A stretch of 64,000 bases of DNA from an uncultured Clostridia bacterium (GTDB taxonomy: Bacteria > Bacillota > Clostridia > Christensenellales > Pumilibacteraceae). This document shows, piece after piece, positions 48,172-49,892 of this stretch. The notes beneath the pieces were generated by a model that worked only from the letters and a program-made list of their open reading frames with translations, was not told where the DNA came from and ran no database searches. The stretch's first letter is position 1; every line of letters begins with the position of its first letter. The position numbers were made by a program, and so were the translations under genes. The DNA lies in assembly GCA_947178255.1 (NCBI GenBank), contig CAMWXP010000002.1, positions 17,421 to 81,420 on the forward strand, given 5' to 3'.

Positions 48172-49572
48172 TTAGTTTGTATCGATTATTATTTTTATCT
48201 TTTTATTATATGCCGTTACGCATATCAATACAGAAACAGCCGCCGTGCAAATTTCGGATATGGGAAACGCCCACCACACATACGATTGCGGAGTTTGCGT
48301 CAGCGTAAACAGCCACACCACCGGCAACACGATAACCGCAAGACGCAGCGCGGAAATAATCAACGGGCTTACCGCATAGCGCAATGCTTGCAAAACACCT
48401 TGAACCGAGATACTGATTGCCATGAACAAATAACCTATACTTGCAATTCGGATAGCCGTTATTACTACTTTGGTAATGTCGCTTCCGCTTTCGCCGCTTG
48501 CCATACCGAAAAGATTTGCAAGAGGTCCCGCAAGGCTTTCAAAAAGCACAGTTATCACAAGCGCAACTATGGCTGTATCTATTAATCCCCATTTTATACA
48601 GTCCATCGAGCGCTGCTTGTTACCCATACCGTAATTATAAGAAAGCACGGAAATTATAGTATTGGACAATCCAAAACAAGCAAATAATGCGAATTGCATG
48701 ATTTTATAATATATGCCGAAGCTGCCTTGCAAAAGAGTGGCATTGTATTTCGCTGTGCCCAATATTAGATTTACGCCAAGCATCATTACAGACAAAAGCC
48801 CTTGCATTAACGCGGCCGATAATCCGATATGATAGATTTCTTTTATTATTTTTCCGCTCGGTCTAATATTTTTTACGTTGTTTCTGATTTCCCTATTTGT
48901 GCAGTAATGGAAAAGCATAGCAATAGCAAGCGATAAGATTTGACCTATTACCGTCGCCCACGCCGCGCCGGCAACCCCCATATTTAACGGATATATAAAT
49001 ACGTAATCGAGAACAATATTCGCTACTGCGCCTGCAATTTGGGAAAGCGTTGAATATAGCGTTCTGCCCGTGCTTTGTAAAAAACGCTCGTATATAGTAA
49101 ACCCGATTGCGCCGAACGATAAAATACAACATATGCTTAAATACTCGCCGCCCATTTGCGCAACAAGTCCGTTGCCTTTTGACTGGAACGCAATAAACGG
49201 TTTTGCGCCAAATAGACCGAATAGCAAAAATACCGCGTATATACAAATGCCCAAAAATATTCCGTTGCCTACGACCCTGTCTGATTTTTCTTTATTATTC
49301 TCCCCCAAGGATTTGGACAAAAGCGCGTTTATCCCAACGCCTGTGCCTACTCCGATTGCAATAATCAAAAGCTGTATCGGGAACGCGTATGTAAGAGCAA
49401 GATTGCCGGCAACGCCGTCCTCGCCCATGTTAATAACAAATGCAGTATCGACTATATTGTAAACGGCTTGCAAAATCATAGAAACAATCATGGGCAAACC
49501 CATCTTCCAAATCAGCTTGCCAATCGGCGCTACTGCCATCTTGTTTTGCGGTTCGGCAATTTCTTGTTGCAT
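48172..49572 (-). CDS. MATE family efflux transporter
   Basis: PMIVSMILQAVYNIVDTAF, NIVLDYVFI, GVAGAAWAT; AAAGGAG RBS; AT-rich. Confidence 0.92.
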   Translation of the reverse strand: MQQEIAEPQNKMAVAPIGKLIWKMGLPMIVSMILQAVYNIVDTAFVINMGEDGVAGNLALTYAFPIQLLIIAIGVGTGVGINALLSKSLGENNKEKSDRVVGNGIFLGICIYAVFLLFGLFGAKPFIAFQSKGNGLVAQMGGEYLSICCILSFGAIGFTIYERFLQSTGRTLYSTLSQIAGAVANIVLDYVFIYPLNMGVAGAAWATVIGQILSLAIAMLFHYCTNREIRNNVKNIRPSGKIIKEIYHIGLSAALMQGLLSVMMLGVNLILGTAKYNATLLQGSFGIYYKIMQFALFACFGLSNTIISVLSYNYGMGNKQRSMDCIKWGLIDTAIVALVITVLFESLAGPLANLFGMASGESGSDITKVVITAIRIASIGYLFMAISISVQGVLQALRYAVSPLIISALRLAVIVLPVVWLFTLTQTPQSYVWWAFPISEICTAAVSVLICVTAYNKKIKIIIDTN

Positions 49573-49627: not shown

Positions 49628-49769
49628 AAGCAACTCATTGATACGATTATTATATGCTTTTGATTGCAAAATGTCAAGCAATTTAAAATTCACAATAAAT
49701 TCTTTTTCGACGGTGCGTATATTGTGAGTTACTGTGCGCCGTTTTTCGTGCCGCACTACTCATCTGTGT

Positions 49770-49829
49770 GCCACTTCGACCAAAGCAAAAGACCACCTTA
49801 TAGGTGGTCCTTGCTTTGGTCGAAGTGGC
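49770..49829. repeat. 28-bp inverted repeat including the tRNA 3' end
   Basis: GCCACTTCGACCAAAGCAA..GACCACCT / AGGTGGTC.TTGCTTTGGTCGAAGTGGC. Confidence 0.9.
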
Positions 49830-49892
49830 GAGACTCGAACTCGCGGCCTCATGGTCCCGAACCATGCGCGCTACCAACTGCGCTACACCTCG
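49817..49892 (-). tRNA. tRNA-Pro (CGG), CCA encoded
   Basis: 76-nt cloverleaf; anticodon arm CATGG-TTCGGGA-CCATG; T-loop GTTCGAG; promoter TTGACA-N17-TAAAAT at 49913-49941. Confidence 0.96.

Follow-up and report, generated by a model that had tools for sequence, protein, structure and literature searches.

Transfer RNA genes are classic landing sites for phages and genomic islands, and to our knowledge every tRNA-targeting element described so far comes with an integrase of its own and is confined to a single tRNA. The DNA analysed here (the window) is a stretch of 64,000 nucleotides from an uncultured Clostridia bacterium, and its sole tRNA, on which ARAGORN and Rfam agree, is tRNA-Pro(CGG). 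Classical integrase genes adjoin tRNA-Pro in four related genomes (G021, contig C22, 64829-75885; G011, C5; G015, C25; G002, C8), and in G021 a 45-nt direct repeat of the tRNA-Pro 3′ part lies 11 kb away. These islands indicate that tRNA-Pro is also used by ordinary integrative elements, and they look quite different from the structure found in the window, where the gene is followed by a long hairpin that includes an inverted copy of its own 3′ end. We consider it probable (roughly 0.7) that this hairpin represents the remaining front half of a single member of a genus-wide family of small tRNA-3′-part cassettes.

The tRNA-Pro(CGG) locus

tRNA-Pro(CGG) is the gene to which the window cassette is attached. 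A RadC-like gene lies upstream, and a MatE transporter gene (Pfam MatE; 48172-49572, minus strand) lies downstream. The features between the tRNA and the transporter, in the order in which they are read on the minus strand, are as follows.

49817..49892, minus strand: tRNA-Pro(CGG), 76 nt, with CCA encoded (ARAGORN; Rfam tRNA, 68.2 bits, E 1.2e-14)
49783..49816, minus strand: terminator module consisting of an A-rich run, a GC hairpin (49791-49809) and a U-rich run (terminator-like site and sequence reading)
49770..49782, minus strand: inverted copy TGGTCGAAGTGGC of the last 13 nt of tRNA-Pro, the first cassette segment (repeat search)
49756..49769, minus strand: linker that closes with the GAGTAG motif, immediately ahead of the long stem's 5′ strand (motif position across copies)
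49712..49755, minus strand: interior of the long-loop ("type B") variant (match to contig C82; alignment)
49690..49711, minus strand: last recognisable cassette sequence, with the purine-rich GAAAAAGAA motif at 49700-49708 (motif conservation; alignment)
49649..49677, minus strand: sigma-70-type promoter TTGACA-17-TATAAT for the downstream MatE gene, outside the cassette (12/12 score; conserved in G024)

A repeat search delimits perfect 19-nt inverted arms at 49770-49788 and 49811-49829, which together with an inner 8-bp GC hairpin (49791-49798 paired with 49802-49809) make up a hairpin of ~28 bp with one bulge. Folding of this hairpin gave z scores of -8.9 and -9.3 for the two strands. The inner hairpin is followed by UUUUGCUUU on the minus strand and has the features of an intrinsic terminator. 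Comparison of 17 related tRNA-Pro loci revealed terminator modules of the same architecture and wholly different sequence. An inverted copy at tRNA-Pro was found in ~15 species and tracks the tRNA variant, such that a tRNA reading GCCGC is accompanied by a copy reading GCGGC or by a partial form (G017, G003, G002).

On the minus strand between 49677 and 49592, a 15-bp terminator-like hairpin and its U-run come after the MatE promoter, ending ~10 nt before the MatE ribosome-binding site. This hairpin is also conserved in G024 and might act as an attenuator or as a small leader switch.

A family of cassettes behind tRNA genes

A preliminary description of the locus had reported the inverted 13-nt copy of the tRNA 3′ end and the ~28-bp hairpin, held the copy to be neither chance nor an ordinary integrase scar, and proposed a survey for inverted copies of tRNA 3′ ends. 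The copy at 49770-49782 is an exact reverse complement, and the hairpin is present with the perfect arms and inner GC hairpin given above. The survey, run on other tRNAs and genomes, revealed the cassette family. Within the genome of the window (G000), the 3′ end of each ARAGORN tRNA (n = 38) was sought in inverted orientation up to 150 nt downstream of the gene. An inverted copy of the gene's own tail, 12-14 nt long and 30-43 nt downstream, was found for five of these tRNAs (Ile-GAU, Ala-GGC, Val-GAC, Pro-CGG and Thr-CGU). With a chance expectation of roughly 1e-6 for an inverted copy of a 13-mer within ~100 nt, and with own-tail copies behind other tRNAs as well, chance is not an adequate explanation. 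The inverted arm is always the first segment of a longer repeat element, and the family to which this element belongs has no recombinase gene inside or adjoining its units. The earlier distinction from an ordinary integrase scar also stands.

Read on the tRNA strand, a full unit starts with a spare tRNA copy that runs from T-loop A58 to CCA, followed by its own terminator hairpin. The reverse complement of the same tRNA tail comes next, then a GAGTAG linker or a T-loop complement, then a long GC-clamped stem around an AT-rich loop of ~70 nt. The unit ends in a 58-nt, three-helix, GC-rich core which abuts the displaced original tRNA tail, again from A58. Units measure ~180-250 bp and are usually gene-less. 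The core follows the sequence pattern GTTCGCTAGGCGC ... CGCCCGCG-loop-CGCGGGC, the purine-rich GAAAAAGAA motif is located in the loop 37-46 nt before the core and is conserved in 28 full copies, and the GAGTAG motif has the equivalent position in copies downstream of Ile, Val, Arg, Ala, and Met tRNAs. Two other readings of short motifs were rejected: a hammerhead-like GAUGAG...GAAA, because the second block in full copies is CAGUUCG rather than CGAAA, and a micro-ORF ending at the TAG in GTTCGCTAGG, because it is in frame in only some copies.

This layout was detected behind 16 tRNA species (counted by anticodon), with copies listed for Thr (2 anticodons), Arg (4), Ala (2), Glu (2), Pro, Gln, Met, Trp, Val, Tyr, Ile, and Lys. 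At readable loci the core always has the orientation of the tRNA and lies 97-163 nt, mostly 133-143 nt, after a tRNA on the same strand. The direct copy begins at A58 in 21 of 36 copies and at position 60 in a further 10, where A58 is kept with a mismatch at 59 in the rows read. Full members therefore carry the direct repeat expected of tRNA islands (attL/attR), starting at A58 or 60 in 31/36 copies. Given the start of the direct copy at A58, the insertion point, or right-hand junction, is placed between G57 and A58. The direct repeat is 5-19 nt long and in several copies runs through CCA into the terminator; often it is decayed or shortened to 5-11 nt. At Ala-GGC, Ile, and Val the inverted copy is perfect relative to the upstream tRNA tail while the distal direct copy is decayed.

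Twelve tRNA genes of the G000 genome have a unit containing the core or its last hairpin, and two further core-less remnants, at Pro-CGG in the window and at Ala-GGC on contig C11, bring the total to 14 of the 38 tRNA genes. Two full cores in the same genome (C4:62554-62688 and C5:10469-10527) have matching inverted and direct copies and no ARAGORN tRNA upstream. The sequence upstream of the C4 core ends in ...CTCTACCA and that upstream of the C5 core pairs with the inverted copy; these may be decayed tRNA or tmRNA-like ends.

Core structure, covariation and distribution

A covariance model of the core, built from nine copies in the G000 genome, detected 15 sites in that genome. Among the 31 genomes of the genus, which are related and thus not independent, 28 contain the core with 1 to 14 matches each, and it was absent from a sample of 150 genomes of other genera of the order searched with stricter filters. 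Across 66 distinct core sequences, 97.8% of cells are paired and 12 of the 15 pairs change on both sides. Slid controls yielded at most five two-sided pairs, and no shuffle attained the observed values. The long stem covaries too. G-U cells are few in the core (12/943), and on the tRNA strand the counts of G-U relative to A-C cells are 12 vs 5 in the core and 34 vs 11 in the stem, a balance compatible with either an RNA or a folded DNA strand. Judged by this covariation, the core is a real structured element.

Rfam searches with five full copies (E up to 1) returned nothing above threshold except tRNA, and the window region (E up to 10) matched tRNA only; no T-box match was obtained for either. 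A YrlA match was rejected (23.6 bits vs a threshold of 69), being driven by the real T-arm, as were matches to RNAI and tmRNA_permuted that fell far under threshold. The core pattern had no match in viral contigs and only two in JGI metagenomes. An initial genome-wide pattern was discarded as too GC-rich: it gave mostly chance matches in GC-rich genomes, and only those in uncultured Clostridia MAGs were real. We found no description of the cassette family in a full-text literature search, and no Rfam 15 family corresponds to it.

Insertion-like behaviour across genomes

Comparison among genomes revealed tandem copies, gene-bearing units and turnover at individual tRNA genes. Three identical tandem units, 176 nt apart, lie behind tRNA-Tyr in G003, and three identical tandem units 245 nt apart were detected in G016 as core-model matches. 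A unit in the G000 genome (L194; C5:28004-29256) consists of tRNA-Ala(CGC), a terminator, a full-length Mrr-type restriction nuclease gene (assigned by Pfam Mrr_cat), the core, and a 13-nt direct copy from A58. Two copies in relatives contain ORFs of unknown function. The ORFs of cargo units comprise the Mrr-like nuclease and one other with no Pfam match.

At tRNA-Ala(CGC), flanks that are 91-97% identical enclose a compact gene-less unit in G008 and the Mrr unit in G000, and the content is different again in G009, G011, and G024. At tRNA-Arg(ACG), G000 has one unit, and G008 has a different complete unit adjoining the tRNA, then a decayed unit of the G000 type, then the identical distal flank. 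The arrangement shows newer units sitting tRNA-proximal to older ones. The same tRNA gene is followed in G002, G004, G005, and G020 by a plain terminator with no inverted copy. Plain terminators in these four genomes, together with the turnover of units, imply that the inverted copy belongs to the unit and does not accompany tRNA terminators of the genus in general. At tRNA-Thr(GGU), four species have a common upstream flank and an identical tRNA 3′ region followed by four different terminators and unit variants.

The tRNA-Arg(ACG) unit of G024 (L233; G024:C1) has lost its core by a deletion exactly between two CAGTTCG repeats. One of these is positioned at the start of the core and the other in the loop of its last hairpin, and such short repeats appear from these sequences to be deletion hot spots.

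An exact empty site was sought at the tRNA-Trp locus, where only occupied sites were found. Among the compared genomes we saw neither an excised circle nor an exact empty site with both flanks, and movement is therefore inferred from comparison only. On that comparison, the units behave as insertion cassettes.

The window copy as a relic

The interior of the window copy is shared with other members of the family over a short stretch of 28-30 nt: positions 49712-49741 match contig C82 of the same genome (5597-5626) at 97% over 30 nt, and also the tRNA-Pro copy of G008. Past the GAAAAAGAA motif the window sequence runs into the MatE promoter, and the copy has no 3′ stem strand, no 58-nt core, and no direct tRNA copy. 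Having lost these parts, it is no longer capable of moving. Complete, core-containing units at tRNA-Pro are found in G002, G003, G009, G011, G013, G018, and G022. In G024 the syntenic locus, ~80% identical and followed by the same gene, shows the same truncation and an even shorter interior.

Within the relic the inverted arm is intact, with 13/13 positions matching in G000 and 12/13 in G024, while the surroundings are only ~80% identical. This suggests that the arm is still maintained, either by selection or by palindrome correction. The remaining part of the window copy, upstream of the MatE promoter, most likely has no role other than terminating tRNA-Pro transcription.

Search for candidate enzymes

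The G000 genome, which is 96% complete, contained no match to reverse transcriptase (PF00078), to IS110-type DEDD recombinase (DEDD_Tnp_IS110, PF01548) or to Y1 (HUH) transposase (PF01797). No site-specific recombinase gene was found inside or adjoining the units (180-250 bp), and typical units have no ORF. The genome also encodes seven large serine recombinases.

XerS-like protein is the only tyrosine recombinase found in every genome of the genus, apparently with one each. In seven genomes of the genus only one Phage_integrase match was obtained, XerS-like in six of them and a partial match at a contig edge in G018. Genomes with XerS-like protein as their single match contain 5-14 core matches (G003, G022, G023, G042, G046) or four (G024). 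In seven genomes the XerS-like gene lies 4-6 kb from a cassette, but this seeming association was rejected, as it reflects the syntenic tRNA-Trp locus.

Three paralogous Xer-like tyrosine recombinases are present in the G000 genome (L203-L205; C27:146-1033, C72:1174-2061, and C26:22363-23262). They are 83-90% identical, have similar upstream regions and lie near contig ends. As the cassette enzyme they were rejected, since they occur in one of five sampled genomes of the genus whereas cassettes occur in nearly all. They are sporadic in the family, found only in G041 and G210 among 60 other sampled genomes, and probably belong to a different multi-copy element or to an invertible system. The four Xer-type recombinases gave only partial matches to the NCBIfam models of integron integrases (~43-100 bits vs cut-offs of 265-435).

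Proposed explanation and its alternatives

In the proposed mechanism, a unit would insert site-specifically into the T-loop between G57 and A58 and supply its own replacement tRNA tail together with a terminator. Pairing of the inverted copy with this tail would allow a single DNA strand to fold into a duplex image of the target, by analogy with integron attC sites or the folded attP of the CTX phage. The enzyme would act in trans. The perfect match of the inverted copy to the upstream tail and its tracking of the tRNA-Pro variant support the proposed pairing. Template switching against a constrained tRNA arm, known as quasi-palindrome mutation or palindrome correction, can produce or conserve a matching arm, and it could also explain both the perfect arm and the tracking of variants. 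We put forward more tentatively, at odds well short of even, that the family represents an undescribed class of mobile DNA: enzyme-less cassettes in which one strand contains both strands of the T-loop target and folds to recreate it. A host enzyme acting in trans, perhaps the housekeeping XerS-like protein, would insert them at G57/A58, and exchanging both target copies would retarget them.

Two alternatives, both raised in the preliminary description, are confined to RNA made at the window locus. The inverted arm might work in cis as a trailer, pulling the acceptor strand away from read-through pre-tRNA-Pro and so controlling its 3′ maturation or termination. The 28-bp hairpin is very stable, and the arm is conserved, follows the tRNA variant across species and remains intact in a relic with ~80% identical surroundings. 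However, the arm comes only after the U-tract, and transcripts ending at the terminator would not reach it. The tRNA-Arg(ACG) genes of four other genomes of the genus have plain terminators and do without the arm, which itself belongs to a larger repeat with features unrelated to processing, and template-switch correction against the constrained tRNA arm can give rise to the same conservation. We regard trailer control as quite improbable. The second proposal was a functional or decayed tRNA-like RNA encoded convergently on the plus strand (49708-49782), sharing the hairpin as a bidirectional terminator. Its literal details are present: CGACGGTG at 49708-49715 matches the 5′ strand of the tRNA at 7/8 positions, the stretch ends in CACTTCGACCA, a weak promoter-like box (TTGATT-18-TAAAAT, 49660-49689, plus strand) scores 9/12 upstream, and the 75-mer folds better than its shuffles (z = -2.9). 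The tRNA mimic drawn from them fared badly. In the folding and covariance-model check that had been proposed for this region, the minimum-energy structure was a rod and not a cloverleaf, and no RF00005 match was obtained from Rfam even at E up to 10; ARAGORN likewise called no tRNA on the plus strand. The promoter-like box overlaps the perfect 12/12 promoter of the minus strand (49677-49649). Alignment places CGACGGTG across the point at which the window copy departs from both the G008 tRNA-Pro copy and contig C82, and because it spans this truncation the 5′ match is incidental. We give such an RNA hardly any credence.

The remaining alternatives concern the family as a whole. The units could be small-RNA genes tied to each tRNA, with DNA copies spread by duplication. 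The inverted and direct copies would then pair into a helix resembling the acceptor and T-stem with a 3′ CCA, and the RNA would either be processed by RNase P and the tRNA 3′-end machinery or act as an antisense partner of the tRNA. Strong covariation in the core and long stem is consistent with this, as are the slight excess of G-U over A-C cells on the tRNA strand, the units that end in a complete tail with CCA and then a terminator, and the fixed distance of the purine-rich motif in the loop. Yet every unit begins just after a terminator, and no consistent promoter was seen. The direct copy is often decayed where the inverted copy is perfect relative to the upstream tRNA (Ala-GGC, Ile, Val), which implies that the helix being kept is the one formed with the tail of the tRNA gene itself and not a closing helix internal to an RNA. 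Gene-bearing units and tRNA-proximal stacking also fit DNA cassettes better, and we think a small-RNA function unlikely to account for the family. A retroelement-like origin, in which units are copied through RNA primed by a tRNA tail or by a terminated transcript, would explain why the order of repeat, PBS-like complement of the tRNA tail, body, and repeat resembles R-PBS-body-R, why TGG, the complement of CCA, is often the exact start of the inverted copy, and why copies end in the T-loop. Because the 96%-complete genome contains no reverse transcriptase match, we consider this origin very improbable.

Implications

If units move in the manner proposed for the cassettes, their movement would point to recombination machinery that recognises structure or base pairing instead of one set sequence. 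It would also provide a route for slotting small defence genes, such as the Mrr-like nuclease, behind tRNA genes. For genome annotation, the cassettes account for many of the unusual "tRNA-like" fragments, tandem repeats, and long palindromes found beside tRNA genes in gut Clostridia.

Comparison with known systems

The nearest parallels are the integrative elements that target tRNA genes and their integrase-less derivatives (genomic islands, CIME-type elements, tandem accretion). Like these, the cassettes are associated with insertion in the 3′ part of the tRNA with a crossover in the T-loop, bring a replacement tail and leave the old tail as a direct repeat, stack in tandem and may carry cargo. 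They differ in having no integrase inside or beside the unit and in measuring only ~180-250 bp. Moreover, one cassette core is found behind 16 tRNA species, with copies matched to the tRNA at hand, and the unit holds an additional, inverted copy of the target.

Integron cassettes with their attC sites, and the attP of the CTX phage folded from single-stranded DNA, offer a second parallel. These too are small and often gene-less or single-gene, with the newest member nearest the entry point, and they possess an imperfect palindrome that can rebuild a duplex from one strand and whose structure is conserved more than its sequence. In contrast to integrons, no IntI-type integrase, attI site or cassette promoter was found with the cassette family; its entry point is the tRNA T-loop, its palindrome is made from the sequence of the target, and it has a conserved 58-nt core.

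Guide-carrying mobile elements (IS110 with its bridge RNA; IscB/TnpB with omega RNA) resemble the cassettes in combining a conserved, folded scaffold with a variable segment complementary to the target. The G000 genome, however, has no DEDD or Y1 transposase, the cassettes match neither HEARO nor other Rfam families, and their complementary segment is separately encoded instead of being read from the flank. REP/BIME sequences mobilized with RAYT are likewise short, gene-less, strongly folded intergenic repeats with a GTAG-type motif just 5′ of a GC-rich stem. The cassettes differ from them in the absence of a Y1 (RAYT) gene, and also in being strictly linked to tRNA 3′ ends and carrying copies of their target.
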